Below the pieces are notes generated by a model, which made no database searches, was not told the DNA's origin, and was given only the letters and a program-made list of their open reading frames with translations. Shown here one piece after another: positions 5,117 to 62,639 of a stretch of 64,000 nucleotides of DNA. The position numbers and the translations under genes were made by a program. This DNA comes from an uncultured Candidatus Saccharibacteria bacterium (GTDB lineage: Bacteria > Patescibacteriota > Minisyncoccia > Phycocordibacterales > UBA918): NCBI GenBank assembly GCA_964399295.1, contig CAYNQD010000001.1, positions 335,672 to 399,671 on the forward strand, read 5' to 3'. Position 1 is the first letter of the stretch. Every line of letters begins with the position of its first letter.

Positions 5117-5198
5117 GCGCGGGTGGCGAAATTGGTAGACGCGTTAGTCTTAGGAACTAATAGAGCAATCTGTGGAGGTTCAAGTCCTCTCCCGCGCA
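5117..5198 (+). tRNA. tRNA-Leu (TAG), long variable arm, CCA not encoded
   Basis: Acceptor GCGCGGG/CCCGCGC, anticodon stem-loop TTAGT-CTTAGGA-ACTAA, long variable arm, T-arm GGAGG-TTCAAGT-CCTCT. A TGCTATACT extended -10-like box lies about 15 nt upstream. Confidence 0.85.
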
Positions 5199-5349
5199 CA
5201 AAAACCTGTACTGAAACTGTATGGTTTCAAGTCCTTTGCACACTAGTAGAAACTTCACTTCGCATAGTGTAATATGCTTTATGTAACAACAATGTTTGTT
5301 GTTATTGCTCTTTTGATTCCTAAATAAATTTTTAAGGAGGTACACAACA

Positions 5350-6134: not shown

Positions 6135-6575
6135 TTACTCCTTACTCGCGCATGCCAACATCCATTGCACGCCGAATTTGTCGGTTAGGGAGCCGAAATA
6201 GTCGCCCCAAAACATGTCTTGCATTGGCATTTCTACCTTACCACCTTCGGCCAAAGCAGCGAAAAGTCGATCAGTCTCGGTGCGGGTATCGGGCTGAAGA
6301 TTGATGTAGATGTTGTTGCCAAACTTCACCGGTGGCAGCCCCATTGATTCCGTGGAGTCGGTGCCCATAAGCCTATAACCATCGAGAATCGGGAGTGACA
6401 CGTGCATGACGAGATTATCATTAGCCTCATTTCTTGGCGGCTGGTCTTCCGAAGGTGGAACATCTTTCATTCTCATAATACCGCCCTCAAATTCACCACC
6501 AAAAACTGATTTATAAAAATTAAACGCCTCCTCGGTATTACCAGAAAAATTTAAATAGGTACTTACTTTTGCCAT
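6135..6575 (-). CDS. VOC-family (glyoxalase/PhnB-like) protein
   Basis: MAKVSTYLNFSGNTEEAFNFYKSVFGG... is typical of PhnB-like VOC proteins. Start chosen at the internal ATG (residue 17 of the listed ORF). Confidence 0.65.
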   Translation of the reverse strand: MAKVSTYLNFSGNTEEAFNFYKSVFGGEFEGGIMRMKDVPPSEDQPPRNEANDNLVMHVSLPILDGYRLMGTDSTESMGLPPVKFGNNIYINLQPDTRTETDRLFAALAEGGKVEMPMQDMFWGDYFGSLTDKFGVQWMLACASKE

Positions 6576-6656: not shown

Positions 6657-7721
6657 CTAAGCCGTTGGTCGCAAACGAGCCTTTTTAAACTGCACACCAC
6701 GAAAATACTGATTGTACCACCGGGCAAAATTTTTCTTGACACCAGGCGGCAATTTGTCTATCAGGCGGCAACGAGTAGAACAATAGCCGTCGCGTTTTTC
6801 TACGCAATCATCACAACCCAAAAACAACACGTGACAAATCTGATTTTTGCAATGATAGTGTGTATCGCTCTTATTTTGGTGGCAAAGATGACAATGAGAA
6901 ATAATTTCCCCGCCGATTCTTTCACCCAAACGCTCATCAAACACAAAGTTCTTGCCTTTGAATTTGTTTTCCAATCCTTCCTTTTCCACTTGATGTTTAT
7001 AATCAATGATACCGCCCCGCAAATGACGCACGTCTTTAAAACCATTATGCTTTAGCCAAGCACTCGCCTTCTCGCAACGAATACCGCCGGTGCAATACAG
7101 AGCAATTTTCTTGTTCTTATGTTCTCGCAAAAGCTCCGGTACCACAGACAATTCCTCACGAAAAGTATCCACATCTGGAGTAACAGCCCGCTCAAACCGA
7201 CCGACCTCGCTCTCATAAGCATTGCGCATATCTACCACAATCGCATTTAGGTCGTCGATGTAGCTGTTCATGTCGGCGGCGGTGAGATATTCGCCGGTGT
7301 TGGTGACATCAAAACTACTGTCGTCCAGACCATCAGCCACTATCTTAGCCTTGACTTTGATTGTTAATTTGAAAAACGACGGCTTATCCCCTTCTTCCAC
7401 CGCAATTTTGTACGGCACACCGGCAAGCTCCGGCTGAGACTGCACCCAAGCGTCAAACTGCTGCCAATTCTCCTTTGGTACATTCATTTGGGCATTTATA
7501 CCCTCATGCGCCACATAAATTCGCCCCAGACAATCAAGCGCCGACCAAGCAGCCAGTAACCGCTCCCGAAAAGCCTCCGGATCAACCAAGCGCACATAAC
7601 GATAAAAAGACACCGTCGTCCGCGGTCGCAAATCAGCCAAAGCCGCCCGCCTTTTCTCCGCTCGCGGCAAACCGGCACTTAGATTTTTAACGGTTTTATT
7701 TTTAGACAATTGATGCTTCAT
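6657..7721 (-). CDS. trhO: rhodanese-domain tRNA uridine(34) hydroxylase TrhO/YceA (UPF0176)
   Basis: SFYRYVRL..DPEA N-terminal region, rhodanese active site CTGGIRCEK, C-terminal Cys-rich tail (CHLCHQNKSDTHYHCKNQICHVLFLGCDDC). Confidence 0.75.
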   Translation of the reverse strand: MKHQLSKNKTVKNLSAGLPRAEKRRAALADLRPRTTVSFYRYVRLVDPEAFRERLLAAWSALDCLGRIYVAHEGINAQMNVPKENWQQFDAWVQSQPELAGVPYKIAVEEGDKPSFFKLTIKVKAKIVADGLDDSSFDVTNTGEYLTAADMNSYIDDLNAIVVDMRNAYESEVGRFERAVTPDVDTFREELSVVPELLREHKNKKIALYCTGGIRCEKASAWLKHNGFKDVRHLRGGIIDYKHQVEKEGLENKFKGKNFVFDERLGERIGGEIISHCHLCHQNKSDTHYHCKNQICHVLFLGCDDCVEKRDGYCSTRCRLIDKLPPGVKKNFARWYNQYFRGVQFKKARLRPTA

Positions 7722-10999: not shown

Positions 11000-11398
11000 T
11001 TATGGTGTCACCTTAACCACAGGAATCAAAGTATTGATATTCTCATTGGTCGCACCGGTACTTGTTGCCAACAGGTTCACAACTCCCCAGAAAATAAGAA
11101 TCAATACGAATCCTAAAGTAGCGTAAATCATCAGGCTCTTGCCTTTTTCCTTAGACTCGTCATTAGCACCACCCGCAATGAAGTACTGGAACATTCCCCA
11201 GACAAACACCAAGAAACCAATACCAATAATAAATGGAATAAGAACATCATTAGTAAAAGCTAATATATTACTAAGCAAGTCCTGAAAACGACCTCCTCCA
11301 CCACCTGGACTAGCCAACCCTCCCGTTTGAGCCGAAGCTTGAGACATAGGAAGTAAAAAAATCGCTAGTGAGCTTACAAAAAATGTGAAACGTTGCAT
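11000..11398 (-). CDS. pilin-like protein with cleavable signal peptide + 2 TM (TrbC/VirB2-like, paralog 2)
   Basis: 132 aa. Signal peptide ending ...SQASA-Q, Gly-rich linker, then TM-loop(GGANDESKEKGKS)-TM with the WGVV motif shared with paralog 3. Confidence 0.6.
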   Translation of the reverse strand: MQRFTFFVSSLAIFLLPMSQASAQTGGLASPGGGGGRFQDLLSNILAFTNDVLIPFIIGIGFLVFVWGMFQYFIAGGANDESKEKGKSLMIYATLGFVLILIFWGVVNLLATSTGATNENINTLIPVVKVTP

Positions 11399-11521
11399 AA
11401 AAAAATTAATTTAATTAAATACTAATAAAGTACTGTCAAGTAGTATAGCTTATATTTAAGAACTTTTCCAGTGGTCAAAGAGATTCTGTGTATAACCTAC
11501 CAATACCCAAAATACCCCACG

Positions 11522-11800
11522 CTATATACCAAACAAAGATTGCCTGAGCATGGCCACCACTCCCCAGAGAATGGTAGCGAGAACAAATACTATCACCGCC
11601 ACCATAGCTGCCTGCTTCCCCTCTCCCCTCTTCTTTTCGTCACCGGCATTTATGACCCAAGCGTCGATTATTTTCCACATCAGGTACAGAAAAAGCAGAC
11701 CCAGAAGAGTCGGTATCAAAACGTTGATGAGGCTCAAAAATAAATCTACTAATTGTTTGAAAGTGGTTGGTGGTGTCATATTTTTACGTAAAGGAACCAA
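11522..11800 (-). CDS. small 2-TM pilin-like protein (paralog 3)
   Basis: 92 aa. TM-loop(NAGDEKKRGEGKQAA)-TM ending ILWGVVAML. An alternative ATG at 11779 would remove the 17-nt overlap with paralog 4. Confidence 0.55.
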   Translation of the reverse strand: MVPLRKNMTPPTTFKQLVDLFLSLINVLIPTLLGLLFLYLMWKIIDAWVINAGDEKKRGEGKQAAMVAVIVFVLATILWGVVAMLRQSLFGI

Positions 11801-12068
11801 CTAGATTTTTAATGATTTCCGCTATCACAACCGCTCCGATAATCAACACTCCGCCAATAATGGCATACATCAAGGCGCGTGAGGCTTGTTGTACCTGCTC
11901 GGCATTGCCCCTGGCTGTCACATAGAGAAAGCCGGCATATATGATAAAGAAAATAACAATGGGCATGGCGATAACAATCACTATATTTAAAATTGCGACC
12001 AGAAGCTCTTCAATGGAGTTCACATTTATAGGATTGTTTAACTTGAAGGAAGTTTTTATTGGTGACAT
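11784..12068 (-). CDS. small 2-TM pilin-like protein (paralog 4; best fit to CPR T4SS-pilin pattern)
   Basis: 94 aa. IIYAGFLYVTARGNAEQVQQASRALMYAIIGGVLIIGAVV fits the pattern I recall for the CPR TrbC/VirB2-like pilin family (Pfam T4SS_pilin, cited from memory). Confidence 0.6.
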   Translation of the reverse strand: MSPIKTSFKLNNPINVNSIEELLVAILNIVIVIAMPIVIFFIIYAGFLYVTARGNAEQVQQASRALMYAIIGGVLIIGAVVIAEIIKNLVGSFT

Positions 12069-12086: not shown

Positions 12087-13388
12087 CTAATAAATTTGTT
12101 GCAAACGGGCAACGGTGTCTCCGGCTACGGACGTGATGTTGCGACGGTTTGAGCTGATGTCTTCTATGGACTGAGTAAATACACCTCTGACACGATCTGG
12201 ATCGGGGTTTAGCCAAGCCCTAGTGTTGAACGCGGAGCTGTATATTACTCTTCCATAGACATCATTGCTGCCCATTTGCAAAGACGTACGATACACCGGT
12301 GCCAGATTATTGGCATCAGCTATTCTTTTAGCGAATTGCTGTTCGCCTAGGGTGTTCATCACGGTATAAGCACCGGACTTATTTTTGGCCGCTTTCAACA
12401 CAAACAAACCGTAAAAATTGCCGTAAGTGCGCTTGTTGACTACATTTTCTCCTTGTGGAACCTCAGCAATATCAAAGCTTAAATTTGGATTTTTGGCTTC
12501 CAGCTCCCTGCCTTCACTGCCAAATCCAAAATAAAGAGCCAGGTCTTCACGTAAAAACATGTCCCGATCCAAAGATAAGGAACGATTCCAGCCATAGAGA
12601 GAATTGTTTACATTGCTGAAGCTGGTAAAGAAAGTAAGAGCGGTGGTTAGTGGAGCCGCCGTGCTACCAGCTGAAGTGTTTAAATTTACGCGATACTGCG
12701 AACCGCTTTCACCAACTAAATTGCTACCGGATTGAATCAACAACATTGATAAAATGGGGAAGGAGTTTTTTATATTTGTATATTCACCCATGGCAACGGC
12801 TGATTTTTGGATAGTGCGATTGAAGTCTCTTTTGGTGAGAGCTGGTGCCACGTCATTTACTATTTCCTCCCAGGTGGCTGGTGGTGTGAGAAAACCATTA
12901 GTAGATAAAGTGTCTCGATTCCAGTACATTACCAAAGGATCTACGGCTATAGGAAAAGCATAAACTCCGTCGTTTAGAGCAAAAATACCAGCTCCGTCAA
13001 TGTACCGATTTCTAAAATCCCTAACCGGAAAAGATTCATAAGGTATAGACTGGAGCCGACTGCGATGTTTTACCATTCTTTCGTGTGACATTAGCAAAAT
13101 ATCCGGCGGGTTTTGGTCAGCCAAAGCATCAACGACCATGCGATCAAAACTTTCCGGTGCAATGTAACGATAAGAGACGTTTCTATAGGAGTCATAGGTT
13201 TCGGACAACTCCCCTAATATTTGACTAAAGACGGTCGCTGGTAAGGTTCCCCAAATGGTCACTGGTCCGCTTACAATAACAGCACTGTCATCGGGCTTTG
13301 GCTCATAAGTACGCATCAAAAACAAAGCTACTAGCGCCAAAACACCAAAAGTCATTACTAAACCTAATTCAAAAGGACGAAGTTTCAT
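12087..13388 (-). CDS. membrane-anchored extracellular solute-binding-protein-like protein (ABC SBP family 1-like)
   Basis: 433 aa. N-terminal TM anchor. IWGTLP...QNPPDILLMSHERM pattern reminiscent of sugar-type SBPs. 4-nt overlap with the downstream methyltransferase gene. Confidence 0.45.
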   Translation of the reverse strand: MKLRPFELGLVMTFGVLALVALFLMRTYEPKPDDSAVIVSGPVTIWGTLPATVFSQILGELSETYDSYRNVSYRYIAPESFDRMVVDALADQNPPDILLMSHERMVKHRSRLQSIPYESFPVRDFRNRYIDGAGIFALNDGVYAFPIAVDPLVMYWNRDTLSTNGFLTPPATWEEIVNDVAPALTKRDFNRTIQKSAVAMGEYTNIKNSFPILSMLLIQSGSNLVGESGSQYRVNLNTSAGSTAAPLTTALTFFTSFSNVNNSLYGWNRSLSLDRDMFLREDLALYFGFGSEGRELEAKNPNLSFDIAEVPQGENVVNKRTYGNFYGLFVLKAAKNKSGAYTVMNTLGEQQFAKRIADANNLAPVYRTSLQMGSNDVYGRVIYSSAFNTRAWLNPDPDRVRGVFTQSIEDISSNRRNITSVAGDTVARLQQIY

Positions 13389-13930
13389 AATTTTCTAACG
13401 GTAAATCCGTAGTGATGGTCTCCAGCCGGAAACTCACGCTCTAAAATAAATTCTAAAGATTCAAACAAACTAATAGCCTTGTCTTTGGTAACCACATCCT
13501 TTGGCTGTGGCCCAATACCGCCAAAGGATTCAGACCAATCAATAACATGCAGCAAGCCGCCAGTTTTTAAAACTCTTCTGATTTCCTTAATCGCTTTCTC
13601 TTTGTTTTCAAATTGAAAAAAAGTATTAACCAAAATACCGGCATCCAAAGCTCCATTAGCTAGCTTTATGCCGTTTTCTTCTTCCAAGTCGCACCAGAGC
13701 GGATGTACGTTTGGGAGATTGCTTAGGCGTATAAACTCGCTGAGTTTTTCCACTAGTTGCTTCTGGATTTCGCAAGCGTAGACTTTTCCCTCCTGTACAC
13801 TCTCTGATAGTATCTTGAGAAAAAAGCCGCTGCCCGCGCCAAAGTCTGCCACCACGTCTCCGGGTTTTAGGTTGAAGTGAGTAGAAACCACTTCAGGCAC
13901 CACAAAGCGTCCTGATAAAACGAAATTCAT
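13385..13930 (-). CDS. class I SAM-dependent methyltransferase
   Basis: Motif I VADFGAGSGFF, post-I acidic residue, motif II region. 181 aa. Confidence 0.75.
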   Translation of the reverse strand: MNFVLSGRFVVPEVVSTHFNLKPGDVVADFGAGSGFFLKILSESVQEGKVYACEIQKQLVEKLSEFIRLSNLPNVHPLWCDLEEENGIKLANGALDAGILVNTFFQFENKEKAIKEIRRVLKTGGLLHVIDWSESFGGIGPQPKDVVTKDKAISLFESLEFILEREFPAGDHHYGFTVRKL

Positions 13931-13991
13931 TAGTATATTTTAATACATAATGATGGGATAGGGAAATGAAAAGTGTGAAGTAAGATTAGTT

Positions 13992-14073
13992 CCCACAACA
14001 AACTCACTGTTTGCTCCGCCCACCACCCCAATATCTACCCTCCGCAAATGGTGTGGTTTGTTGTGGGGCGGGG
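13992..14073. repeat. degenerate copy of an ~82-bp palindromic intergenic repeat (family shared with 62653-62734)
   Basis: cccacaacaaactcactgtttgc ... gtttgttgtggggcgggg. Shares a ~22-nt arm with the perfect copy at 62653. Central loop looks reverse-complemented relative to that copy. Confidence 0.55.
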
Positions 14074-14075
14074 TT

Positions 14076-16544
14076 TTACACAAACACCACGCTAGCAATC
14101 GCGTCGCCTTCTCGCATCTTCATTATTCTCACTCCTTGGGTTTGTCGGCCTAGAGTTGGCACGTCTTTCAAGGATAGTTTAATCACCTGCCCTTTTTGGC
14201 TCATAATAACCAATTCCCCATCCAATCTTTCATCTTCCTTCAAAACAATTCCACAAACAATCACTCCGGTCTTATCAGTAACTTTCGCGGTTTTAATACC
14301 CGAACCGCCACGCTTTTGTACTTTGTATTCTTTGGTTGGGGTGGTTTTACCATAACCATGCTCGGCTACAATCAAGATTTCAGTATTTTTGTCGCCCTTT
14401 TTTATTACATCGGCCGAGACCACCACGTCCCCCTTACCCAGCTTCATGGCCGTCACTCCGGCGGCGGTTCGTCCCATTTCTCTGACATCAGATTCCTTAA
14501 ACCGAATAGCTTGACCTTTTAAAGTCACAAATGACAATTCATCACCCTTACCCACAAACTTAGCGGCAATAAGTGAATCGTCTTCCTTGAGAGTAATAGC
14601 AATCAGACCGCTGCGACGCACGTCCTTGAAAGAATTAGCGTCGCTTTTCTTCACCACTCCATTTTTGGTAGCCATCATCAAACTCCAGTTTCCAGCCCAT
14701 TCATCCTTACGAACTGCCAACACGGAAGTTATACTTTCGTCTGAGGACAGAGACAAGAAATTCATAATCGATTTGCCTTTAGTGGCTCGTCGTCCTTCCG
14801 GAATTTCATACATTTTACTCTGGAAAACCTTGCCTTTATCGGTAAAGAAAAGCAAATCACTGTGCGCTGAAGTGGTCAACAGAGTTGTCACCACGTCTTC
14901 TTCTTTGGTATTCAAGTCCACCACACCCACTCCGCCTCGTCTTTGCGTCCTATATTCACTTGGATTTGTCCTCTTTACGTATCCGCCCTGCGTCAAAACC
15001 AACACGCTCTCATCATCCGGCACCAAGTCTTCCTGCGAAAGCTGCTTGACTCCGCCCTTTACAATCTTTGTTCGCCTGTCATCTCCGTATTTTTCGGCCA
15101 CTTCAAGCAGGTCGTCTTTGACAATCTTCATCATTCTGGACTTACTTTTCAAAATCGCTTCCAATTCTTTGATAAGCTTTTGTATAGCTTTTAGCTCGTC
15201 TTCAATCTTCTTTCGCTCCAAGCCCGCCAATTTTTGCAGACGCATATCAAGAATCGCTTGCGCTTGAATTGCAGAAAATTTAAATTCCTTTATCAAAGCG
15301 GCGTGAGCTGAAGGCACGTCCTTGGCCGCTCTAATCAATTTGATAATTTTATCAATGTGATCCAAAGCCTTTTTAAGACCGAGTAAGATGTGTTCACGGT
15401 CTTGGGCTTTGCCTAAATCGTAGGCCGTGCGCCGACGAATAACCTCGGCGCGATGCTTTACATACTCCTGCAAAATAGCCTTCAAAGATAGAGTTTGTGG
15501 GATTCCGTCCACCAAGGCTACCATGTTGTAGTGAAAAGCATCTTCGAGTTGAGTATGCTTGTATAACTTATTTAAAACTGTTTGCGGTTGAGCGCCGCTT
15601 TTGAGCTCAATCACGATTCTGATATCAGAAGTAGACTCATCACGCATGTCGCGAATACCCTCAATACGCTTGTCTCGCACCAAATCAGCAATCTTTACCT
15701 GCAAATCAGCCTTGTTGACGCGATATGGTATGGACGTAATAATTATGGAAAAAGCTCCGCGTTTGTCTTCGACAATCTCAGCCTCGCCTCTGACAATCAC
15801 CCCGCCTTTGCCGCCCGAGTAAGCGTGAGCAATATCTTTTTGATTAAAAGCAATGGCACCAACCGGAAAATCCGGACCTTTGACAAACTTAAGCAAGTCG
15901 TCGGTCGAAGCCTCGGGATTGTCAATCAAATGCGCTACCGCATTGGCCACTTCACGCAAGTTGTGCGGCGGAATGTTTGTGGCCATACCCACCGCGATTC
16001 CCAAAGAACCCATCAGAAGTAGGTTGGGCACGGCGGCTGGCAAGACGATAGGCTCTTTCTTAGTGCCGTCAAAATTTGGCCGCCAATTTACCGTGTCTTT
16101 CTCAAGATCACGAAGCATTTCTTCCGCCAATTTCGACATTTTGGCTTCCGTGTAACGATAAGCGGCGGCGGAATCTCCGTCAATCGAACCAAAGTTTCCT
16201 TGTCCCAAAACCAACGGATAGCGCGTGGAGAAATTTTGAGCCAACTTTACCATTGCTTCATACACAGAAGCGTCGCCGTGTGGGTGCAGGCTACCAAGCA
16301 CGTCTCCCACCACGGTAGCGGACTTTCTAAACTTGGCGCTAGCCGTCAAGCCATTCAAACGCATGGAATAAAGAATACGGCGATGCACCGGCTTAAGACC
16401 GTCGCGCACGTCTGGTAAAGCTCTCTGAGTAATCACGGACATCGCGTAGTCAAGATAGGCATTTTCCATCTCGCTGGCGATACTTTGCGTGATGATTCCG
16501 CGCGGAGATTCCGGAGTTTCGGTGGTGATTGTCTTTTTCGGCAT
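14076..16544 (-). CDS. gyrA: DNA gyrase subunit A
   Basis: Active-site region [13 protein letters not shown]-terminal GyrA fold, C-terminal beta-pinwheel with GyrA-box-like QRRGGVG. 822 aa. Confidence 0.9.
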
Positions 16545-29268: not shown

Positions 29269-29343
29269 GGCCCTATCGTCTAACGGCTAGGACACTTGGT
29301 TCTCATCCAAGAAATCGGAGTTCGATTCTCCGTAGGGTCACCA
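29269..29343 (+). tRNA. tRNA-Glu (CTC), CCA encoded
   Basis: Acceptor GGCCCTA/TAGGGTC (one G-U), anticodon stem-loop CTTGG-TTCTCAT-CCAAG, T-arm CGGAG-TTCGATT-CTCCG, ACCA end. Confidence 0.85.
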
Positions 29344-29519
29344 CGTATAGATAATTTACCATCATTGCAAATTATCACAATAAACCCAAAATCGCCCTTA
29401 TTTTAGGGGCGATTTTGGATTTTTGGAGTGTGAATATAAATTGTCGTAAGTGAGAATGGTGATTGAATCCTGCGGAAATCGAACTGGTTAGAATAAGGTC
29501 AAATATATTTTTTGTTAAA

Positions 29520-29822
29520 TCAAGTATCTAAATGCATTTCATAATCCATTGATTTATGCAACACTCTATAGATTGAAACCCCGTCATCGGTGGGTTTGTA
29601 GTAAATTACATGCGACACCACCTTCCATGCATACAGATTCGAACGGATGTGACTGCAATTTCTACCTTGATTATAGTTATCTGCTAAAAATTGAAAAGCT
29701 GATACTAAGTCATCAATATATTTTTCAGCTCGTTCCAGACCAAAGGTTTCAAAACTATAAATAAAGATATCATTTAAATCTCTGTCGGCAGTCTCGCGGA
29801 CGTGAAATTTTTTATTTACCAT
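29520..29822 (-). CDS. parE: type II toxin-antitoxin system RelE/ParE-family toxin
   Basis: 100 aa. ParE-like pattern (FHVRETADRDLNDIFIYSFETFG...). 11-nt overlap with the upstream antitoxin ORF. Confidence 0.7.
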   Translation of the reverse strand: MVNKKFHVRETADRDLNDIFIYSFETFGLERAEKYIDDLVSAFQFLADNYNQGRNCSHIRSNLYAWKVVSHVIYYKPTDDGVSIYRVLHKSMDYEMHLDT

Positions 29823-30066
29823 TCATTTTTGTCTTAATCTGGGATAAAAATTTCTCTTTAGTCCAGCCGTCAATGGCAGGGCTGTTTTCCGCCTCGTCTA
29901 TCAACTGTCGTAGTTGTTGAAGTTTTGATTTTGCTTCCTGTTCTTGTAGCAGACGCAAACCAGCTCTCACAACTTCACTCTGGTTTTGGTATCGACCAGC
30001 CTCAACTTGACTCTCAATAAAATTACTCAATTCTTCGCTGGGTTGAAAAGTAAGGGTGCGTGACAT
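29812..30066 (-). CDS. parD: type II toxin-antitoxin ParD-family antitoxin (ribbon-helix-helix)
   Basis: MSRTLTFQPSEELSNFIESQVEAGRYQNQSEVVRAGLRLLQE is a classic ParD/CopG RHH N-terminus. Start at residue 21 of the listed ORF, giving 84 aa. Confidence 0.7.
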   Translation of the reverse strand: MSRTLTFQPSEELSNFIESQVEAGRYQNQSEVVRAGLRLLQEQEAKSKLQQLRQLIDEAENSPAIDGWTKEKFLSQIKTKMNGK

Positions 30067-30225
30067 GGTGCTTGTTCCTTTGTAAGACATATTCTTACAA
30101 TTTAGCATAGCTAGTAATCTTGTCAAGAATTAAATGCCTTTTTGTCAGAAGTGCTATCATATAATTCTTGGTCGTGAATTAGCTTAAATAATTTCTCGGT
30201 ATTTTTTCGTGGTTTGGGGTGGGTG

Positions 30226-30257
30226 GTTCGAGATGTGGAGCGGTGTGGGGCACAAAC
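30226..30257 (+). repeat. left copy of ~32-bp imperfect direct repeat flanking the AT-rich fru-like island
   Basis: gttcgagatgtggagcggtgtggggcacaaac versus gttcgagatgtggctcggtatggttcacaaaac at 32510 (27/33 identical, same orientation). Confidence 0.6.
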
Positions 30258-30370
30258 TTGCCACATATGTAATTATTCACACTTGGATGACATCTATATA
30301 TTCAAGCTACGGTTTTTTATTTTAAGATTATTAGATCATTGTATTTTTTATTCTAGACACTCGACTAATA

Positions 30371-31234
30371 TCAAGCTTTTTTTCTGTACAATAAATTGGT
30401 TTTTTGATGTATGGATGCATATGCCATTGCAGTTTTGATAGCATTACTAAAATCAATATCAGTACTTAAACCAACTAAATAACCACCAAGAAATATATCA
30501 CCAGAACCTATTTCACTTTCATTCTTTGCAATATGTTGGTTTGGCAATATAAATTCAGAATATTCTCCGTTTTTATCAACTACTAAAACCTTCTTTGATG
30601 CTTGAGTTATCACAAGACGGCACTTTATATCATTTTGTAAATCTATAAGGTTTTTCTTGGTAATTTTTGTTATAGGTACGTTCAGAATACTAGAAAGCTC
30701 TTTTATATTTATTTTTAAAGTATGTGGCAAAATCTTTTTTAAGGCTTCTACGTTAAAAGTTGTCGTATCCAAAATTTTTTTACACCGAATATCTGAAACT
30801 AATTTTGTGAGTAAACTATAATCTGCATCCCCCTTCAGGAATGGAGTCGACCCAGCTATCACAAGATAATCTTCTTCTCCAATAATTCCTTTAATTTTAT
30901 TGAAAAACTGCTCAATATTAGAGTATGAGGCTACTGATTTACTACGAATATGCGAAACCAACTGAGAATTTTTATAGATAGTAAAGTTTTGACGTATAGA
31001 TCCTTCATGAAAAAAGAACTCATGCTCTTCCCTTGAGACACTTTCAAAAGGTATTTTTCCAGAAAAAACTAACGAACAGAAATTTATATTATTAATAATA
31101 AGAGGCTTAGCCGAATTTATAGCCTTACTTGCTAAAAAATACTCAACTTTTTGTGCAATACAATCTCTACTACCAAACTCGTCAACTTCTATCTTTGTGT
31201 CTATGGCAGGATTTAATGTTATTAAATAAATCAC
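30371..31234 (-). CDS. PfkB-family carbohydrate kinase (1-phosphofructokinase/tagatose-6-phosphate kinase-like)
   Basis: N-terminus MIYLITLNPAIDTKIEVDEF is typical of FruK/LacC. PfkB signature GSGDIFLGGYLVG near the C-terminus. Strongly AT-rich. Confidence 0.7.
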   Translation of the reverse strand: MIYLITLNPAIDTKIEVDEFGSRDCIAQKVEYFLASKAINSAKPLIINNINFCSLVFSGKIPFESVSREEHEFFFHEGSIRQNFTIYKNSQLVSHIRSKSVASYSNIEQFFNKIKGIIGEEDYLVIAGSTPFLKGDADYSLLTKLVSDIRCKKILDTTTFNVEALKKILPHTLKINIKELSSILNVPITKITKKNLIDLQNDIKCRLVITQASKKVLVVDKNGEYSEFILPNQHIAKNESEIGSGDIFLGGYLVGLSTDIDFSNAIKTAMAYASIHQKTNLLYRKKA

Positions 31235-32277
31235 GCTAATATTATATCAGTTTGATGATTATCAAAGTATTTTTGGTAATCTTTAAGTAGCCTGCCACCA
31301 TTAGTTTCAGCTGATATAATCTTTATATTCTCATTAAATTCTGCAAAAATTTGCGATTGTCTTAATCCAAACTTATCTTCAGTGCAGACTATATACTTTG
31401 ACTTGCAATATCTAAGTAATGAGGCTTTCGCACGCTTTTCTCCAGAATCTGCTGTTGTAAACCCAACATTCTTTAAAATTCCATTGGTTCCCACGAAGCC
31501 TATATCCGCGCCGCCTAATGACGGTAAAACTTTGTCAAAATCATGAAAAATATCTTCTTCCACACTTTCGTTGTCGTCCACAATTGCCATTGTGTTAAGC
31601 CTTACTCTGCCACCTATAATAAATAATCTAAACATAGGATCATGATCTTCGAGTCCTAATTCGCTACATGCCGTCACAATTGCATCGGCGACCAAGAAAG
31701 AGCTGGTTACCACAGTAATCTTTCTCAACGAATGGTCTTTAAAGCCTTTTGCGATTAGCTTAGCTATTTCTAGGGTAGTAGTACCAGCATCTAATGCCAC
31801 CACATCACCTGACTTAATAAACGAATAAGCTTTTTCTGCGATCTTTCTTTTTTCGTGCCGTCCTATATTTTTCTTCCACGATATATGTTCCTCATGTATA
31901 AATAAATTATCGTGCTCTCGCACCAATCCTGGAAGCTTATCTTGGACAATTAGTGCAGATAGTGCTTTTTGAAAAGCTTCGAAATCTAGTTCTGTCTCTT
32001 TTCTATCCACTAGTCTTTTATGAAGATCAAATACTGTTATTGGATCGTCTTTTTGATATGGTCTAACTACGTTTAATATTGTTGCTGCTTGTGTTTTTAA
32101 AAGTCTTTCTGTTTCCTCGAGTGCGGTCTCCGGCTCAATTGTATTTTCTTCAATGACAAATGATTTTCTGAGCTTTTGAATAAATTTAAACTTTTTATTT
32201 ATATACAACCCAATCAATGCGCAAACGGCTGTCACTATCGTGGTAATTATTGCTGCCGTAGCTGTATCAATGAACAT
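31231..32277 (-). CDS. DeoR-family-like regulator (sugar-phosphate sensor domain) with N-terminal transmembrane helix
   Basis: DeoR C-terminal effector-domain pattern (SGDVVALDAGTTTLEIAKLIA...ITVVTSSFLVA). N-terminal 25 aa hydrophobic. 4-nt overlap with the kinase gene. Confidence 0.55.
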   Translation of the reverse strand: MFIDTATAAIITTIVTAVCALIGLYINKKFKFIQKLRKSFVIEENTIEPETALEETERLLKTQAATILNVVRPYQKDDPITVFDLHKRLVDRKETELDFEAFQKALSALIVQDKLPGLVREHDNLFIHEEHISWKKNIGRHEKRKIAEKAYSFIKSGDVVALDAGTTTLEIAKLIAKGFKDHSLRKITVVTSSFLVADAIVTACSELGLEDHDPMFRLFIIGGRVRLNTMAIVDDNESVEEDIFHDFDKVLPSLGGADIGFVGTNGILKNVGFTTADSGEKRAKASLLRYCKSKYIVCTEDKFGLRQSQIFAEFNENIKIISAETNGGRLLKDYQKYFDNHQTDIILA

Positions 32278-44567: not shown

Positions 44568-44643
44568 TGGTGCTTGGGGGCGGGCTCGAACCGCCGACCC
44601 CTTCCTCTTCAGGGAAATGCTCTACCAACTGAGCTACCCAAGC
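44568..44643 (-). tRNA. tRNA-Phe (GAA), CCA encoded
   Basis: Minus-strand sequence GCTTGGG-TA-GCTCAGTTGGTAGAGC-A-TTTCC-CTGAAGA-GGAAG-GGGTC-GGCGG-TTCGAGC-CCGCC-CCCAAGC-A-CCA. Confidence 0.85.
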
Positions 44644-44709
44644 AACGACTGTTATTTTAGCCTGTTTTAAACTATATTTCAACTTTTAGCAACCAGACAA
44701 AAACAAGAC

Positions 44710-45018
44710 TTAAATTTCGGGTTGTCTAAAACCAGATTTGACGGATTCGAGCCAATCCTTGGCTCCATCCATTTCTAAATTTATTTTCTCCAGATTTTCG
44801 ATTTTTGCCTGCAGATTTTCCCAATTTGGCTTTATGTAATTGAAGTAAGTATAAAACAGCAACGCTACTATAAACAAAAGCCAAAGCAACCGAAAAACAG
44901 TACCGATTATAGAATTTCGTCGCATCCTTCTGAGCAGAGTGTTGTTCTCCAGCAAAAGCCGTTGATTTTCTTTCAACAACTCACGAATGTCATCATCTTC
45001 ATCCTCCATATAGTCCAT
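44710..45018 (-). CDS. hypothetical membrane protein with acidic N-terminus and coiled-coil
   Basis: Start at MDYMEDEDDD (residue 24 of the listed ORF). One TM helix. TATAAT-like box immediately upstream. Confidence 0.45.
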   Translation of the reverse strand: MDYMEDEDDDIRELLKENQRLLLENNTLLRRMRRNSIIGTVFRLLWLLFIVALLFYTYFNYIKPNWENLQAKIENLEKINLEMDGAKDWLESVKSGFRQPEI

Positions 45019-45092
45019 ACACCCATTATAACAGACACTGGCTCTAATGACACAATATGGTAAAGTATATCTGCAAAAGAAAAGCAACCACT

Positions 45093-45167
45093 GCCCTCGT
45101 AGCTCAATGGATAGAGCTATTCCGTCCTAAGGAAGAGATGTGGGTTCGATTCCTGCCGAGGGCACCA
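45093..45167 (+). tRNA. tRNA-Arg (CCT), CCA encoded
   Basis: Acceptor GCCCTCG/CGAGGGC (perfect), D-arm GCTCAATGGATAGAGC, anticodon loop GTCCTAA, T-arm GTGGG-TTCGATT-CCTGC, ACCA end. Confidence 0.85.
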
Positions 45168-45189
45168 AAATCTGATAAAGAATTAGGAA

Positions 45190-45212
45190 GAAACTCTGCG
45201 AGTTTCTTTTTT
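45190..45212 (+). terminator. rho-independent terminator after tRNA-Arg
   Basis: gaaactc-tgc-gagtttc followed by tttttt. Confidence 0.75.
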
Positions 45213-45320
45213 CGTTTTAGCTTGATTTTATTTGACATTTGTTGTAATTTGACTTTGGTATTAAGCCCGATTGTCGGGCTTAAATCGTACATTCCCAACC
45301 AAAAAGAAAGGTGGACAGCT

Positions 45321-46025
45321 ATGGAAACAAGTCGTATCATTCTGGCGGCTGATGAGCTGAGTCTCGATCAATGCTTGGAGCTTGCCTCCAAGGTCGGCGA
45401 TCGGGTTCACGCCATAAAGATTCACAACGCGTTCGATCAACAAGGCCCCGGTGTCGTCCAGCGACTTCGGGACGCAGGCGCTCGTCGTGTCTGGGTGGAT
45501 GCGAAACTCCACGATATCCCGAACACTGTCAAGCTCCGTGCGAAGGCAATCGCCGAGTCCGGAGCCGACATCCTCACCGTTCACGCCTCTGGCGAGATCG
45601 AGATGATGATGGCCGCAGTGGAAGCGGGACCGTCGGAGATCTACGCGATCACGGTTCTCACTTCGCTCGGCGAGGAACAGGCGCACCTTCTGCACGGACA
45701 ACCGTCCAAGGCAGGCGCACTCTACCTCGCGCGTCTCGCGAAGCTCGCGGGCGTTCACGGTGTTGTGTGCTCACCCAAGGAGGTCGTGATCCTCGCCAAG
45801 AGGCCCGAACTTCAGGGGCTGAAGTTTATCACACCGGGTGTTCGTTCTTCCGGCAAGGCAACCGACGATCAGAAGAGAGTGGATACTCCGGCGGGCGCGA
45901 TCGCTTCCGGCTCAACTCATCTCGTCGTCGGACGGCAAATCACGCAGGCAACTGATCCGGTGGATGCACTCCGCCAGATCGAGGAGGAGATTTCTCCGAA
46001 CGCTACGAAGGAGGTGAAATCATGA
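45321..46025 (+). CDS. pyrF: orotidine 5'-phosphate decarboxylase
   Basis: OMPDC motifs ILAADELS, DAKLHDIPNT, ILTVHASG, FITPGVR. RBS AAAGGTGG. Roughly 60% GC by eye. Confidence 0.85.
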   Translation: METSRIILAADELSLDQCLELASKVGDRVHAIKIHNAFDQQGPGVVQRLRDAGARRVWVDAKLHDIPNTVKLRAKAIAESGADILTVHASGEIEMMMAAVEAGPSEIYAITVLTSLGEEQAHLLHGQPSKAGALYLARLAKLAGVHGVVCSPKEVVILAKRPELQGLKFITPGVRSSGKATDDQKRVDTPAGAIASGSTHLVVGRQITQATDPVDALRQIEEEISPNATKEVKS

Positions 46026-46651
46026 ACGAGCAAGAAGTCCTGCAGGTTCTCGGCAAAGTTGGAGCAGTCATCGCCGACAGCCACATCGTCTACACGTCTG
46101 GCAAGCACGGCACGGCGTACGTCAACAAGGATGCGGTTTACCCGCACACCGCGAAGACGTCTCGCCTCTGTCGAGCAATCGCCGAGCGGTTCGCGGACGA
46201 CAAGGTGCACGTGGTCATCGCTCCGGCAATCGGCGGCGTGATTCTCTCGCAGTGGACAGCACATCATCTCACGGAGATGAACGGTCACGAGGTGTTCGGG
46301 GTTTACGCCGAGAAGTCCGAAAGCGGAGACGCCTTCGTCATCAAGCGTGGCTACGACAAACTCATCGCTGGCAAGAACGTTCTGGTAGTGGAAGATGTTC
46401 TCACCACCGGCGGCTCCGCCAAGAAAGTGATCGAAGCCACGCGAGCGATTGGCGGCAATGTCATCGGCCTCGGCGTCCTCTGCAATCGTGGAGGAATCAC
46501 GCCGCAAGATGTGGCCGATGTTCCGAAACTCACGGCACTCGTCTCCGTCAAGCTCGACGCACATGACGAGGCAACGTGTCCGCTCTGCGAGCAGAACGTC
46601 CCGATCAACACGGACGTCGGCAAGGGGCGCGAATTCCTCGCGCGAAAGTAA
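46022..46651 (+). CDS. pyrE: orotate phosphoribosyltransferase
   Basis: PRPP-binding motif VLVVEDVLTTGGS. ATGA overlap with pyrF. Same high-GC composition. Confidence 0.8.
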   Translation: MNEQEVLQVLGKVGAVIADSHIVYTSGKHGTAYVNKDAVYPHTAKTSRLCRAIAERFADDKVHVVIAPAIGGVILSQWTAHHLTEMNGHEVFGVYAEKSESGDAFVIKRGYDKLIAGKNVLVVEDVLTTGGSAKKVIEATRAIGGNVIGLGVLCNRGGITPQDVADVPKLTALVSVKLDAHDEATCPLCEQNVPINTDVGKGREFLARK

Positions 46652-46675
46652 ACATGAATCCGCAACGGGTTCTCT

Positions 46676-46714
46676 GGGTTCGTCATCGTAAGGTGACGAA
46701 CCCTTTTTCTTTTT
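46676..46714 (+). terminator. rho-independent terminator after pyrE
   Basis: gggttcgtca-tcgtaagg-tgacgaaccc followed by tttttcttttt. Confidence 0.8.
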
Positions 46715-46806
46715 GCCAAAGTTTCAAAGAACAATTTATTGCGAAAACAATTTTTTCAGTTATCCTTTAATTGTATTTGTTTTCGCAATTGTCAGCGCAA
46801 AACTTT

Positions 46807-46853
46807 TTTTAAGCGAGGGTGCGGCGGAATTCCTCCCCCCAACCCCCTCCTTC
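46807..46853. repeat. 13-bp GC-rich perfect inverted repeat with 21-nt C-rich loop
   Basis: gggtgcggcggaa-ttcctccccccaaccccctcc-ttccgccgcaccc. Confidence 0.6.
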
Positions 46854-47003
46854 CGCCGCACCCGAGCGTTTCGCCGGAGCGAAGCGGAGGCGACTAGAAA
46901 TTTTTCAGGAAATGGTTTCGAGCCGTACGGTAAAGATACACAGGCTAGTGCTACCGAGTGACTATAAGCCACTCGGTCATTTGTTGGGTCAACCAATTCT
47001 TAA

Positions 47004-47870
47004 TCAGCTCAAGAATTTCTCGATAAATTTATCGTATCGAAACTTCTGGATTTTTGGCCATTTATGCATTCTGACCAGCAGCCAAGTTGCTCTTGTAAAT
47101 TCAAAGTCAGATTGAAAATTTGAAAGCTTTGGCAGGTTATGTTCAACGCAAATCTCATCAAGTAGCGTGAAATATTGCGCTCTTTGTTCCTCCAAAAATC
47201 TGTACTTTGCAAAGTACTCAAACTCTTGTGAATCTGGGAAGTAGTCTATAGAAACTATTCCACCAATCAGGTCGTGTCCAAATGGTGCATGGTAAGAATC
47301 CTCCAAATCTATAGCGCCTCCTGGGTACAAATTATGTGGATTGAAATCTCCATGACTAATAACGAATGGAAGTTCAGTTATCCTTTCCTGAATCTCTCTA
47401 AATCTGGACTGGATTTTTTCCGCATACTCTGGAAGTTCTTGGCAGAGAATGTCTAAATGAATACCATCAGCAAACCCTTCAAAGTTTCTGTCGGGGGTCT
47501 GAGTGTGTAGTTGTGCGCGAGCAAATTGATCAGTGATACTTAGAAACTGATTGAAACTTTCTTCGCTTATAGCTCCGGTTAATTCAGTCTCTTCGGCAAA
47601 TGCTGCACTAAGCGTCTTATCGCCAACTGAAGATTCAACAAAATAGACCCTTCCATCCAGCTCTCCTTCAGTAATTAGTCTTGCAACTGGAAATCCGGCC
47701 GACTCCATGCGTTTGTGAAGAGCTAGATCGGAATGTATTTTTGCCGCTACACCTATTCGTAAATATGAGTCAGGGCTTTTGTAGACAGCTGAATTACCAT
47801 CACGCTGTCCTTTTACAAACTCAAAGGTAGTTCCTTCAAGTTCAATTTTCTCAGGTATCTCTGATATCAT
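47004..47870 (-). CDS. phosphotransferase enzyme family protein (APH/choline-kinase-like fold)
   Basis: Catalytic loop HGDFNPHNL, downstream DLEDS. 288 aa. Substrate unknown. Confidence 0.65.
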   Translation of the reverse strand: MISEIPEKIELEGTTFEFVKGQRDGNSAVYKSPDSYLRIGVAAKIHSDLALHKRMESAGFPVARLITEGELDGRVYFVESSVGDKTLSAAFAEETELTGAISEESFNQFLSITDQFARAQLHTQTPDRNFEGFADGIHLDILCQELPEYAEKIQSRFREIQERITELPFVISHGDFNPHNLYPGGAIDLEDSYHAPFGHDLIGGIVSIDYFPDSQEFEYFAKYRFLEEQRAQYFTLLDEICVEHNLPKLSNFQSDFEFTRATWLLVRMHKWPKIQKFRYDKFIEKFLS

Positions 47871-61439: not shown

Positions 61440-62639
61440 ATGGATTATTATCGACATCTCTTTTTAACCGACGGACCAAAGAAAGACATCAGTTTTACGA
61501 TGGTTTATTTGCTGTCGACCATCTTTGCCTTTCAGTCTCTTTTGACAGCTTATTCAAGCTCCACCTATCTGGAACAATTTATAGCCACCAAGTATATAGG
61601 TCTTGTCTATGCCTTGGGCGCGATTGGCGCCATCATTCTTACCATTTTCGCTCCCAATATTTTACGTAAAATTGGTAACGTAAATTTTATTTTATCTTTA
61701 ATGGTCTTGATGTCTGTCCTTTTGGCCATAATCGGCTTGGCTCCAACTCCATTTTTGACCATTGCCGCTTTTATATTATTTTTAATTATCAATCCTCAAG
61801 CTTACCTAAACATTGATATTTTTCTGGAAACCCTAATCGGCACAGACGAACACACTACCGGCAGCAAGCGTGGAATAATTTTAACCTTCATGAGTATCGC
61901 TTCGTTTTTTTCGCCACTAGCTATGGGATATATTATAGGTATAAAAAATAATTTGGCTGATGTTTACTTTGTTTCGGCCGGTATTGGTTTGATTATTATT
62001 ATGTTTATCGTGGCCAAACTAAGACATTTCTACGATCCACCTTATGAAATAATAAAAATCCGCAAACTTCTAACCGGACACATCAATGATATCGACATAA
62101 AAATCGTTTTGTATACGCAGTTTTTGCTACAATTTTTCTATACTTGGGCCATTATTTATTTCCCACTTTACCTGGCTTCCAGTCTCGGCTTTGACTGGGA
62201 AACTATCAGTAAAATAATTGCTGTTGGGTTGTTTGCTTTTGTGATTTTTGAATATCCGATTGGACGCTTGGCGGACGAAAAAATCGGTGAAAAAGAAATG
62301 ATGGCTCTGGGTTTTGTTTTTCTGGCAATATCATCAGCTTGTTTTTCTTTCCTGGACACAAACAGCGTTTTGACGTGGATGATTTTGATATTTCTTACCC
62401 GAGTCGGCGCTAGCTTGGTTGAGGTGACTTCCGAAAGTTATTTTTTCAAAAAAGTCCGTGGTAACGACTCAAACCTAATTAGCTTATTCAGATTAACCCG
62501 CCCGCTGGCCAATCTAGCCGGCGCGATTTTAGGAAGCGTGGTTTTGCTTTTTCTACCTTTCAACTTAATCTTCGTTGTCTTAGGTATAATAATGGTAACT
62601 GGAATTTTTGTAACCACAAAACTCACTGACACTAGATAA
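61440..62639 (+). CDS. MFS-type transporter (12 TM)
   Basis: 12 hydrophobic helices in a 6+6 arrangement with a basic cytoplasmic loop. 399 aa. Confidence 0.65.
   Translation: MDYYRHLFLTDGPKKDISFTMVYLLSTIFAFQSLLTAYSSSTYLEQFIATKYIGLVYALGAIGAIILTIFAPNILRKIGNVNFILSLMVLMSVLLAIIGLAPTPFLTIAAFILFLIINPQAYLNIDIFLETLIGTDEHTTGSKRGIILTFMSIASFFSPLAMGYIIGIKNNLADVYFVSAGIGLIIIMFIVAKLRHFYDPPYEIIKIRKLLTGHINDIDIKIVLYTQFLLQFFYTWAIIYFPLYLASSLGFDWETISKIIAVGLFAFVIFEYPIGRLADEKIGEKEMMALGFVFLAISSACFSFLDTNSVLTWMILIFLTRVGASLVEVTSESYFFKKVRGNDSNLISLFRLTRPLANLAGAILGSVVLLFLPFNLIFVVLGIIMVTGIFVTTKLTDTR

Follow-up and report, generated by a model that had tools for sequence, protein, structure and literature searches.

Introduction

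Genomic islands that integrases place at P4-like attachment (att) sites of transfer RNA (tRNA) and transfer-messenger RNA (tmRNA) genes are the closest described counterparts of the element analyzed here, a pyrF-pyrE gene pair that directly follows a tRNA-Arg(CCT) gene in a 64,000-nucleotide stretch of contig CAYNQD010000001.1 (positions 335,672 to 399,671; the whole stretch is called the window below). As in such islands, the pair lies at the 3' end of a tRNA gene in the same orientation, deviates in composition, and is absent from syntenic relatives, while related copies follow tmRNA and many tRNA genes and tRNA 3'-end duplications are present at three related loci. Unlike such islands, it forms a cassette of only ~1.55 kb, there is neither an integrase nor an attR repeat in the window, the cargo rather than an integrase gene abuts the tRNA, and the position of the junction is not fixed across loci. 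Islets acquired horizontally at tRNA genes are a familiar class of mechanism. Integron gene cassettes share with this element that they are small, single-function mobile units found in many contexts without a recombinase of their own. The pyrFE cassette differs from them by its own predicted promoter and terminators, and no attC-like site and no integron integrase or array were found. An integron gene cassette was ruled out on these grounds, together with the fact that the hairpin downstream is part of a promoter-like element that occurs independently of pyrFE.

The PyrE and PyrF enzyme families convert orotate and phosphoribosyl pyrophosphate (PRPP) to orotidine monophosphate (OMP) and then to UMP. 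The same two families are encoded by the canonical E. coli genes and the B. subtilis pyr operon, and the motif of OMP decarboxylase (ODCase) and the PRPP-binding loop are both present in the cassette. In contrast to the canonical genes, pyrB, pyrC, pyrD, and carAB are not nearby, the leader of the cassette matches no Rfam family (the PyrR binding site included), PyrE scores under its equivalog cut-off, and the cassette pyrE travels with either of two unrelated-looking forms of pyrF, or with none. Orotate is utilized by bacteria that combine an orotate transporter with PyrE and PyrF, for example through OroP in Lactococcus lactis. External orotate would reach UMP by the same two steps here; unlike in OroP-type utilization, no transporter was identified for the pyrFE cassette, and dependence on external orotate is put forward only as a proposal.

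Bacteria of the candidate phyla radiation (CPR, or Patescibacteria) are believed to rely on other cells for their nucleotides. In PMC7304191, patchy metabolic traits of CPR bacteria, namely RuBisCO, glycolytic enzymes, and NiFe hydrogenases, are described as spread by lateral transfer. The pyrFE cassette resembles these traits in being a metabolic capacity spread by transfer among CPR bacteria and not by descent. It differs from them in that the evidence is at the DNA level (leader, terminator, unsaturated synonymous divergence, and retained GC content), and in that insertions favor one specific kind of site, the region 3' of tRNA and tmRNA genes. Below we present the case that the pyrF-pyrE pair is, with high probability, a horizontally acquired and self-contained cassette that entered the 3' end of tRNA-Arg(CCT) from another Patescibacteria genome.

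Results

A compositionally foreign gene pair

The region around the pair contains the following features. Handles that begin with L denote loci with which the window was compared; among these, L014 (GCA_018062385.1), L015 (a near-identical ENA contig), and L016 (CP060227.1, a complete genome) are the syntenic relatives. Open reading frames are abbreviated as ORFs.

44568-44643, minus strand: tRNA-Phe(GAA), a host gene (ARAGORN, Rfam), syntenic in L014-L016
44710-45012, minus strand: small conserved host ORF of ~100 aa (longest reading to 45087), with 48-56% identical ORFs in L014 and L016
45093-45167, plus strand: tRNA-Arg(CCT) (ARAGORN), left edge of the hotspot, its 3' end abutted by the cassette
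45168-46715, plus strand: pyrF-pyrE expression cassette, very probably acquired, ~1.55 kb with a GC-rich coding core (limits from DNA similarity among copies)
45321-46025, plus strand: pyrF, orotidine-5'-phosphate decarboxylase, short type 1, 234 aa (PF00215, TIGR01740)
46022-46651, plus strand: pyrE, orotate phosphoribosyltransferase (OPRT), pyrE_Therm-like subfamily, 209 aa (PF00156, TIGR01367)
47004-47870, minus strand: APH-like phosphotransferase (PF01636) with a host-like GC of 0.40

A first-pass annotation of this DNA had described an abrupt rise to ~60% GC over pyrF and pyrE, and this was borne out. In 300-bp windows, GC content went from 0.35-0.44 (44650-45399) to 0.58-0.62 (45400-46599) and was back at 0.39-0.41 by 46900. 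The two genes together had a GC content of 0.594, compared with a mean of 0.426 for the other 1331-bp windows (sd 0.031, maximum 0.496; z = 5.4), and no other kilobase of the window exceeded 0.50. The pair was likewise a strong outlier in tetranucleotide distance to the rest of the window (z = 11.1) and in GC content at third codon positions (GC3), which was 0.66 for pyrF and 0.74 for pyrE against ~0.22-0.57 for the other ORFs. Codon choice followed the same direction: CTC made up 70% of the Leu codons in the pair versus 9% elsewhere in the window, CCG 81% versus 25% of the Pro codons, and AAG 79% versus 30% of the Lys codons. The long Arg-rich ORFs that had been reported for the alternative frames of both genes are present as well.

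Such an abrupt change at gene boundaries is also what one would expect of a chimera, whether from a false join in assembly or from a high-GC contaminant that was binned with a low-GC genome, and contig breaks are frequent nearby: L001 and L003 begin 715 bp upstream of pyrF, and L004 and L133 stop at the pyrE terminator. Identical PyrF and PyrE proteins were, however, encoded on contigs of four separate runs (SRR16797977, SRR16797981, SRR16797988, and SRR16797999), and these contigs link the pair to HSP20/ValRS on one flank and to APH/Grx/LepA on the other, spanning both the tRNA-Arg/cassette and the cassette/APH joins. Since the same join was assembled independently in four runs, it is not a chimera. 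A similar step in GC content was also found in unrelated NCBI, JGI, and ENA assemblies, and the low-GC leader and terminator run on into both flanks. We consider the probability of an assembly artefact to be next to nil.

The locus in syntenic relatives

The host genome is of the Paceibacteria type, in agreement with the CPR-like host proposed before: the LepA protein of the window was 88-90% identical to proteins labelled Pacebacteria, Parcubacteria OLB19, and Nomurabacteria. In the relatives the gene order is ValRS-PrsW-HSP20-tRNAPhe-small ORF-tRNAArg(CCT) ... Grx-DivIC-LepA, as it is in the window. Counterparts of the small ORF at 44710-45012, for which no Pfam match was found, sit between tRNA-Phe and tRNA-Arg in L014 and L016. 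Both pyrFE and the APH-like gene are missing from L014-L016, which supports the proposal in the first-pass annotation of a horizontal acquisition next to tRNA-Arg(CCT), given that the relatives keep the flanks without the pair. DNA similarity between the window and these relatives ends at 45168, the first base past the tRNA, and returns near 47908; the tRNA-Arg gene is conserved in the relatives up to GGGCAC and divergence begins right after. The start codon of pyrF lies 153 bp past the tRNA gene.

The gap between tRNA-Arg and Grx is filled differently in each lineage, with a 130-aa ORF in L014, and with a 136-aa ORF and a 795-aa protein in L016. This 795-aa protein (13320-15707 in the Nomurabacteria genome CP060227.1, at the same hotspot) carries spermine-synthase and peptidase-M28 domains. 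The differing contents after tRNA-Arg(CCT) mark the site as a variable hotspot. The APH-like gene, which was absent from the syntenic relatives and from all other fetched loci, is a second lineage-specific gene in this variable gap. The suggestion that relatives might carry the APH-like gene directly after tRNA-Arg held in so far as pyrFE is absent there, and failed in so far as the APH-like gene is absent too. A search with the APH protein for an empty-site variant in the source population returned no such variant, as every APH contig either carried pyrFE or broke at the terminator. The cassette would have entered next to the tRNA-Arg(CCT) 3' end once this lineage had separated from its nearest sequenced relatives.

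Copies of the cassette in other Patescibacteria

The first-pass annotation had expected a protein search to return high-GC bacteria as best hits. Instead, the closest PyrF and PyrE homologues are all from Patescibacteria, with identities of up to 94-95%, and their labels include Zambryski-, Taylor-, Lipton-, Yanofsky-, Doudna-, Jorgensen-, Campbell-, Falkow-, and Wildermuthbacteria. The genomic contexts of the copies have little in common. The cassette is located ~170 bp after tmRNA between smpB and ftsH in L005 (host GC 0.385), beside a Xer-like recombinase gene in L007, after ftsZ in L010, and near dnaA in L013, and in L012 it lies inside a tRNA cluster, Cys-Leu(TAA)-[cassette]-Lys-Leu(TAG), that is uninterrupted in the window at 4557-5199. 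Across 80 loci from species-representative genomes, the adjoining ORFs belong to ~100 different Pfam families on each side, and no integrase, transporter, or other pyr gene recurs beside the cassette.

Similarity between the copies is nonetheless high. Cassette DNA was 80-85% identical to copies in different contexts, reaching 85% over 1.3-1.4 kb for L005 and L007, and the similarity extends to the non-coding leader and terminator in L012, L013, L017, L018, and L019. Housekeeping proteins of the same genome pairs were much less alike: relative to L012, PyrE was 86% identical, while IF-2, RbfA, and the aminotransferase were 49%, 38%, and 43% identical; relative to L010, the values were 73% for PyrF and 59%, 36%, and 26% for FtsZ, FtsA, and HisRS; and relative to L025 they were 86% for PyrE and 51% for RNase J. 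Synonymous divergence (dS) between cassette copies was unsaturated, at 0.4-0.7 (1.0 to L026), and the ratio of nonsynonymous to synonymous divergence (dN/dS) was 0.07-0.14. In a clade of 13 loci whose PyrE shares 84% identity or more with that of the window, pyrE GC was 0.53-0.61 at host GC values of 0.35-0.52, so that it was nearly independent of host GC (r = 0.15, slope 0.08) with a mean excess of 14 points. In the class with 60-68% PyrE identity, pyrE GC followed that of the host (slope 0.82, r = 0.76) and exceeded it by 2 points. A neighbour-joining PyrE tree placed the window within a shallow tip clade, where hosts with different labels and the two types of pyrF occur side by side. Taken together, the unlike contexts, a cassette identity far above that of housekeeping genes, the host-independent GC content, and the PyrE tree show transfer among Patescibacteria. 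In this process, the cassette lineage would have held a GC content of ~53-61% while passing among hosts of 35-52% GC.

These comparisons also bear on two other origins. Were pyrFE ancestral at this locus and lost in the sampled relatives, with its GC content and conservation kept by selection, the frequent gene loss in CPR genomes and the strong purifying selection on pyrE would be in line with such vertical inheritance. What speaks against it is that the GC excess is found at synonymous sites (GC3 0.74 versus ~0.45), which is not seen in highly expressed host genes, that each lineage has a different genomic context, that IF-2, FtsZ, and RNase J are far less alike than PyrE/PyrF when the same genomes are paired, that dS is unsaturated, and that cassette GC is uncoupled from host GC. 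We consider vertical inheritance very improbable. The other possibility is that the cassette came directly from a free-living high-GC bacterium (e.g., Actinobacteria, Deinococcus-Thermus, or Verrucomicrobia) and that its GC content is the signature of the donor. Its 59% GC indeed matches none of the sampled hosts, its PyrE is closest to the 'Thermus-type' subfamily TIGR01367, and PyrE proteins with 62-76% identity are found in metagenome-assembled genomes (MAGs) labelled Chthoniobacterales, Bdellovibrionales, and Proteobacteria. However, all named matches above ~77% identity are Patescibacteria, bar a few automatically labelled MAGs, and the non-coding leader and terminator are common to the CPR copies. 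PyrE proteins from outside the CPR, such as those labelled Chthoniobacterales and Alphaproteobacteria, form clades of their own with host-like and mostly lower GC contents (0.42-0.48 in Chthoniobacterales). More distant relatives also occur in high-GC Patescibacteria, with pyrE GC values of 0.62-0.63 at host GC values of 0.57-0.58 (L049 and L068). Direct acquisition from a free-living donor is quite unlikely in our judgment, and an origin outside the CPR is possible only for a deep ancestor of the cassette.

Landing sites next to tRNA and tmRNA genes

At 25 of 64 loci, the first cassette gene was preceded, at a distance of no more than 500 bp, by the end of a tRNA or tmRNA gene, and in 24 of these 25 the RNA gene was co-oriented with the cassette (P = 8e-7). 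The adjacency expected from tRNA density in the farther flanks of the same loci was 3.7% (binomial P = 1.6e-19). Within 500 bp downstream, a tRNA gene was present at only 2 of 73 loci (Fisher 4e-8 for upstream versus downstream). The upstream neighbours comprise at least ten tRNA species as well as tmRNA. Some tRNA-adjacent loci share their arrangement by descent, as do five Chthoniobacterales loci with the order tmRNA-pyrF2-pyrE; when these were collapsed, P was still near 1e-14. Sites just 3' of tRNA and tmRNA genes are preferred landing sites of the cassette family. The tRNA-adjacent position that had been singled out for the window thus stands on two grounds, the divergence of the relatives at the tRNA-Arg 3' end and the bias across the family. 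Adjacency to tmRNA occurs in very distant groups: the Chthoniobacterales-labelled MAGs L061, L065, L070, L073, and L077 combine tmRNA with long-form pyrF, pyrE, and a host-like GC content, and the Patescibacteria loci L005/L022 and L080 combine it with short-form pyrF and pyrE.

Direct repeats resembling att sites were found in two cassette loci only, L012 and L033. In L012, a 14-bp direct repeat exactly flanks the cassette, and its left copy is the 3' end of a tRNA-like remnant. This remnant (6900-6974), located between tRNA-Leu(TAA) and the cassette, was not called by ARAGORN; it has a T-arm, an acceptor 3' end, and an anticodon-like loop CTGAAAA, lacks a D-arm, and ends with the 14 nt of the repeat. 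By eye, a further att-like scar is visible in the same locus at 6166-6360, where the 3' end of tRNA-Cys (GATTCCCCTCCGTGCCT) is repeated ~110 bp downstream. In L033, a 26-bp copy of the tRNA-Lys 3' end bounds a 3.4-kb island with pyrFE and a 462-aa ORF. In the relatives L014/L015, an 18-bp duplicate of the tRNA-Arg 3' end lies 131 bp downstream of the gene and looks like the footprint expected of site-specific integration.

Several observations weigh against the reading that the cassette entered at the tRNA-Arg 3' end from another Patescibacteria genome. In the window, the tRNA-Arg 3' end (GATTCCTGCCGAGGGCAC) is present as a single copy even when three mismatches are allowed, no direct repeats of at least 9 bp flank the cassette apart from T-runs, and no integrase (Phage_integrase domain) was found among the scanned ORFs; on the last two points our scans agree with the first-pass annotation, which had seen neither an integrase nor a convincing direct repeat. 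Terminal inverted repeats were not found at 45168/46715, nor a transposase domain among the scanned window ORFs, and left junctions vary between loci; the cassette is therefore no discrete transposon of defined extent. With dS at 0.4-0.7, the transfers were not very recent, and no donor genome that matches the composition of this cassette lineage was found among the loci compared. Many taxonomic labels of MAGs are automatic and possibly wrong. Finally, PyrE scores below the TIGR01367 cut-off, and its presumed specificity for orotate is deduced from its resemblance to the family and from its close linkage with pyrF.

Among the candidate vehicles, a transposon, insertion sequence, or miniature inverted-repeat transposable element was ruled out by the missing terminal inverted repeats and transposase and by the variable junctions, and a phage or plasmid vehicle by the lack of any match in IMG/VR or in phage or plasmid collections. 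A tblastn search with the L007 recombinase matched only L064 beyond its own locus, integrase-linked cassettes being limited to L007 (Xer-like) and L064, and integrase families are absent from the 25 most frequent families of cassette neighbours. Most likely, a recombinase supplied in trans would have inserted the cassette site-specifically at a tRNA att site, or else the cassette would be what remained of a larger island after its decay. An alternative is natural transformation with recombination anchored on the conserved tRNA (homology-facilitated illegitimate recombination), which would involve no integrase and leave no att repeats. Such a route is consistent with the lack of a direct repeat at most tRNA-adjacent loci (the window included), the lack of a recurrent integrase near the cassette, the varying junction positions, and the presence of at least ten tRNA species and tmRNA as upstream neighbours. 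It is at odds with the att-like duplications of tRNA 3' ends in L012, L033, and L014/L015, which are a signature of site-specific integration, and with the strict co-orientation (24/25) that is expected of integrase att sites. We regard the transformation route as a doubtful, though real, possibility.

The pyrF and pyrE genes

The PyrF protein scored 162.8 bits against PF00215 (cut-off 27) and 140.7 bits against TIGR01740 (cut-off 92.3), and with 190.8 bits it was slightly below the cut-off of 193 for NF001273. Its best PDB match was the ODCase 3ldv (E = 1e-32), and the catalytic D-x-K-x-x-D motif is kept, with VDAKLHDIPNT aligned to LDLKFHDIPNT of this solved structure. The dN/dS ratio of pyrF was ~0.11. 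A 322-aa ORF listed from 45057 runs through tRNA-Arg; the true start of pyrF is the ATG at 45321, which is preceded by AAAGGTGGA and agrees with the 234-aa homologues. PyrE reached 48 bits against PF00156 (cut-off 26.3), as a type I phosphoribosyltransferase domain. By far its top NCBIfam match was TIGR01367 (pyrE_Therm, the Thermus-type OPRT), at 117.8 bits under the equivalog cut-off of 150.25. Its best PDB match was the OPRT 4paw (E = 6.5e-12), with the PRPP loop VLVVEDVLTTGGS and the C-terminal CPLC motif aligned. For pyrE, dN/dS was in the range given above for the cassette copies (0.07-0.14). From the enzyme families, PyrF would be expected to decarboxylate OMP to UMP after the PyrE reaction. 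The stop codon of pyrF and the start codon of pyrE overlap by 4 bp (ATGA), and the two genes are probably translationally coupled; pyrF was directly upstream of a related pyrE in 46 of the 80 loci.

Behind the conserved leader there is either short pyrF, as in the window, or a long-form OMP decarboxylase of 300-306 aa, or pyrE alone. The long form has no tblastn similarity to the short form (~234 aa). The conserved core of the cassette is leader-pyrE-terminator with an exchangeable pyrF slot. Long-form pyrF is found in L013, L017, L018, L020, L024, L026, and L029, and short-form pyrF in the window, L019, and L022. The two forms are interleaved in the shallow PyrE clade, where they precede near-identical pyrE genes, and this interleaving implies repeated replacement of pyrF within the cassette.

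Leader, promoter, and terminators

The left limit of the cassette was set by similarity to L013, L017, L018, and L019, and the right limit by similarity to L012, L013, L018, and L026. Between these limits, the non-coding features are as follows.

45185-45211, strand not assigned: terminator-like hairpin flanked by A/T runs, left end of the cassette (scored on both strands)
45222-45250, plus strand: putative promoter, -35 TTGATT at 45222-45227, 17-nt spacer, -10 TAATTT at 45245-45250
45260-45283, plus strand: conserved leader stem-loop TTAAGCCCGA-ttg-TCGGGCTTAA, followed by the conserved stretch AAATCGTACATTCCCAAC
46676-46713, plus strand: intrinsic terminator of the cassette, 12-bp stem (hairpin 46676-46703) and T-run

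The hairpin at 45185-45211 had been taken for the terminator of the tRNA-Arg gene itself. It is followed by a T-run and is kept in L013 and L017-L019, all of which are without an upstream tRNA-Arg, and it is missing after tRNA-Arg in the relatives; we therefore assign it to the cassette instead, which it may insulate from read-through. In the putative promoter, T1, A2, and T6 of the -10 hexamer TAATTT were invariant across 12 aligned loci. The leader stem-loop showed compensatory changes in five of its six predicted pairs and had a folding energy of -20.8 kcal/mol (z = -2.1). When 933 kb were scanned with a covariance model of the leader, matches were found at 14 distinct loci, and only immediately upstream of the first cassette gene. 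No Rfam family was matched in the leader or the downstream region beyond the two tRNAs. Judged by these features, the leader would be a stem-loop in the 5' untranslated region of the mRNA, or else a palindromic operator. The terminator that had been noted after pyrE is present, and it is kept in L012, L013, L017-L020, and L026.

The downstream spacer and a widespread intergenic element

Two further features lie between the cassette terminator and the APH-like gene.

46738-46789, strand not assigned: perfect 13-bp inverted repeat ATTGCGAAAACAA / TTGTTTTCGCAAT in the spacer
46811-46944, plus strand: widespread intergenic element (nhmmer), with a GC-rich hairpin at 46817-46863 and a promoter-like module GGTTTCGAGCCGTACGGTAAAGATACA at 46914-46940

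The inverted repeat at 46738-46789 is common to some close copies of the cassette and to L105, a locus without pyrFE. The GC-rich hairpin is a perfect 13-bp inverted repeat with arms at 46817-46829 and 46851-46863, and a T-A to C-G change in its stem is compensatory. Its existence had been recognized in the first-pass annotation, with coordinates (46807-46853) that were ~10 nt off. The role then proposed for it, that of the end of the island, did not hold. The element accompanies some copies of the cassette without a fixed side or orientation, being located upstream in L017 and L019, where it is inverted, and downstream in L020 and L026, and an exact-pattern scan recovered 34 metagenome loci that have the element without pyrE or pyrF. 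In L113, L118, and L121, tRNA genes begin 4-5 nt past the module. On account of the 34 loci without pyrFE, some of which have a tRNA directly after the module, the element is a general and highly conserved unit of these genomes, made up of a hairpin and a promoter-like module, rather than the end of an island. The same 34 loci rule out the GC-rich hairpin as a cassette end, an attC-like site, or a terminal inverted repeat. The 27-nt module contains TGTAAAGAT, which resembles an extended -10 element. In the window, the element is directed toward the 3' end of the APH-like gene, which is convergent with it.

Further observations concern this element and similar intergenic sequences. In the 34 loci (L097-L130), which are mostly from groundwater and have diverse downstream genes, the element is ~140 nt long with ~85-95% identity, and in 12 of the 34 the module lies no more than 150 nt from a contig end. 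It may be a mobile or reused promoter unit, and it may drive leaderless tRNA transcripts. Next to it in the window, at 46945-46990, is a hairpin with an 8-bp stem (ACCGAGTG...CACTCGGT) and CATTTGTT after it. This stretch is antisense to the APH-like gene at its 3' end and has no Rfam match; a short antisense transcript is one possible explanation, and what is left of an RNA gene is another. A motif CCAAAATCTGA(C/T) occurs directly past the 3' ends of tRNA-Arg (window 45163-45176) and tRNA-Leu (L106/L110), and also directly after the promoter-like module, where it is often followed by GC-rich hairpins such as GCGCGAAGCGCG; in addition to these loci, it was seen in L097, L099, L107, L109, L117, L120, and L122. 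This distribution suggests mosaic intergenic repeat units around tRNA genes.

Metabolic role of the pair

The pair would convert orotate and PRPP to OMP and then to UMP. No domains of pyrB, pyrC, pyrD, carAB, or other pyrimidine-pathway genes were found among ~55 scanned ORFs of the window, in keeping with the first-pass annotation, which had noted no other pyrimidine-biosynthesis gene there. Salvage of orotate, as proposed in the first-pass annotation, is a plausible role, in which orotate would be imported rather than made by the cell. A different function, compatible with transfer, is that the pair completes or replaces part of a de novo pathway for which carAB, pyrB, pyrC, and pyrD lie elsewhere in the genome. 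The visible DNA is 64 kb and only a part of the contig, an Amidohydro_1 domain that could be PyrC was present in 3 of 69 downstream neighbours of related loci, and some Patescibacteria are less reduced than others. This function is made unlikely by the scans of the window and by the 80 loci, in which none of pyrB, pyrC, pyrD, and carAB recurs beside the cassette; moreover, CPR genomes are generally described as being without nucleotide biosynthesis (PMC7304191). No literature that links CPR bacteria with pyrE, pyrF, or orotate was found in the library searched.

As a separate observation, the window contains a gene for an MFS-family transporter (61440-62639) for which there is no evidence of orotate transport. 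A homologue of this gene (38% identity) is located in L025 ~4.6 kb downstream of pyrE, past homologues of SBP_bac_5 and RNase J.

Other features of the window

A second tRNA-adjacent composition outlier, in this case of low GC content, spans 29269-32277 (window average 0.43).

29269-29343, plus strand: tRNA-Glu(CTC), start of the low-GC region
29520-30126: ParE/ParD toxin-antitoxin pair, after tRNA-Glu(CTC)
30371-31234: PfkB-family kinase, GC 0.30
31231-32277: DeoR-C-domain protein, GC 0.36

At 11000-12068, three small genes in tandem match T4SS_pilin (PF18895), and a similar trio is present in L012.

Discussion

The picture that emerges across the family of pyrFE cassettes combines a conserved and presumably regulatory leader, an exchangeable pyrF, a foreign GC content that is kept, and a strong bias, in a set orientation, toward the 3' side of tRNA and tmRNA genes. 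A more far-reaching reading of this picture, which we hold as a tentative minority view, is that leader-(pyrF1/pyrF2/none)-pyrE is a promiscuous cassette that turns over across Patescibacteria classes and is caught preferentially 3' of tRNA and tmRNA genes without a recombinase of its own. Its capture would proceed through integrases acting in trans, or through recombination on the conserved tRNA and on intergenic promoter/hairpin repeats. With such turnover, the foreign GC content would be kept because the stay in each host is brief and, if this is true, orotate would be a major cross-fed pyrimidine currency of episymbionts. More generally, the passage of this cassette among distantly related CPR lineages, under strong purifying selection and with repeated landing beside tRNA and tmRNA genes, points to orotate, or to a pathway ending in orotate, as a selected entry point for pyrimidines in CPR bacteria, and it offers a concrete case, at the level of DNA, of gene flow within the CPR in which regulatory sequences travel together with the genes.

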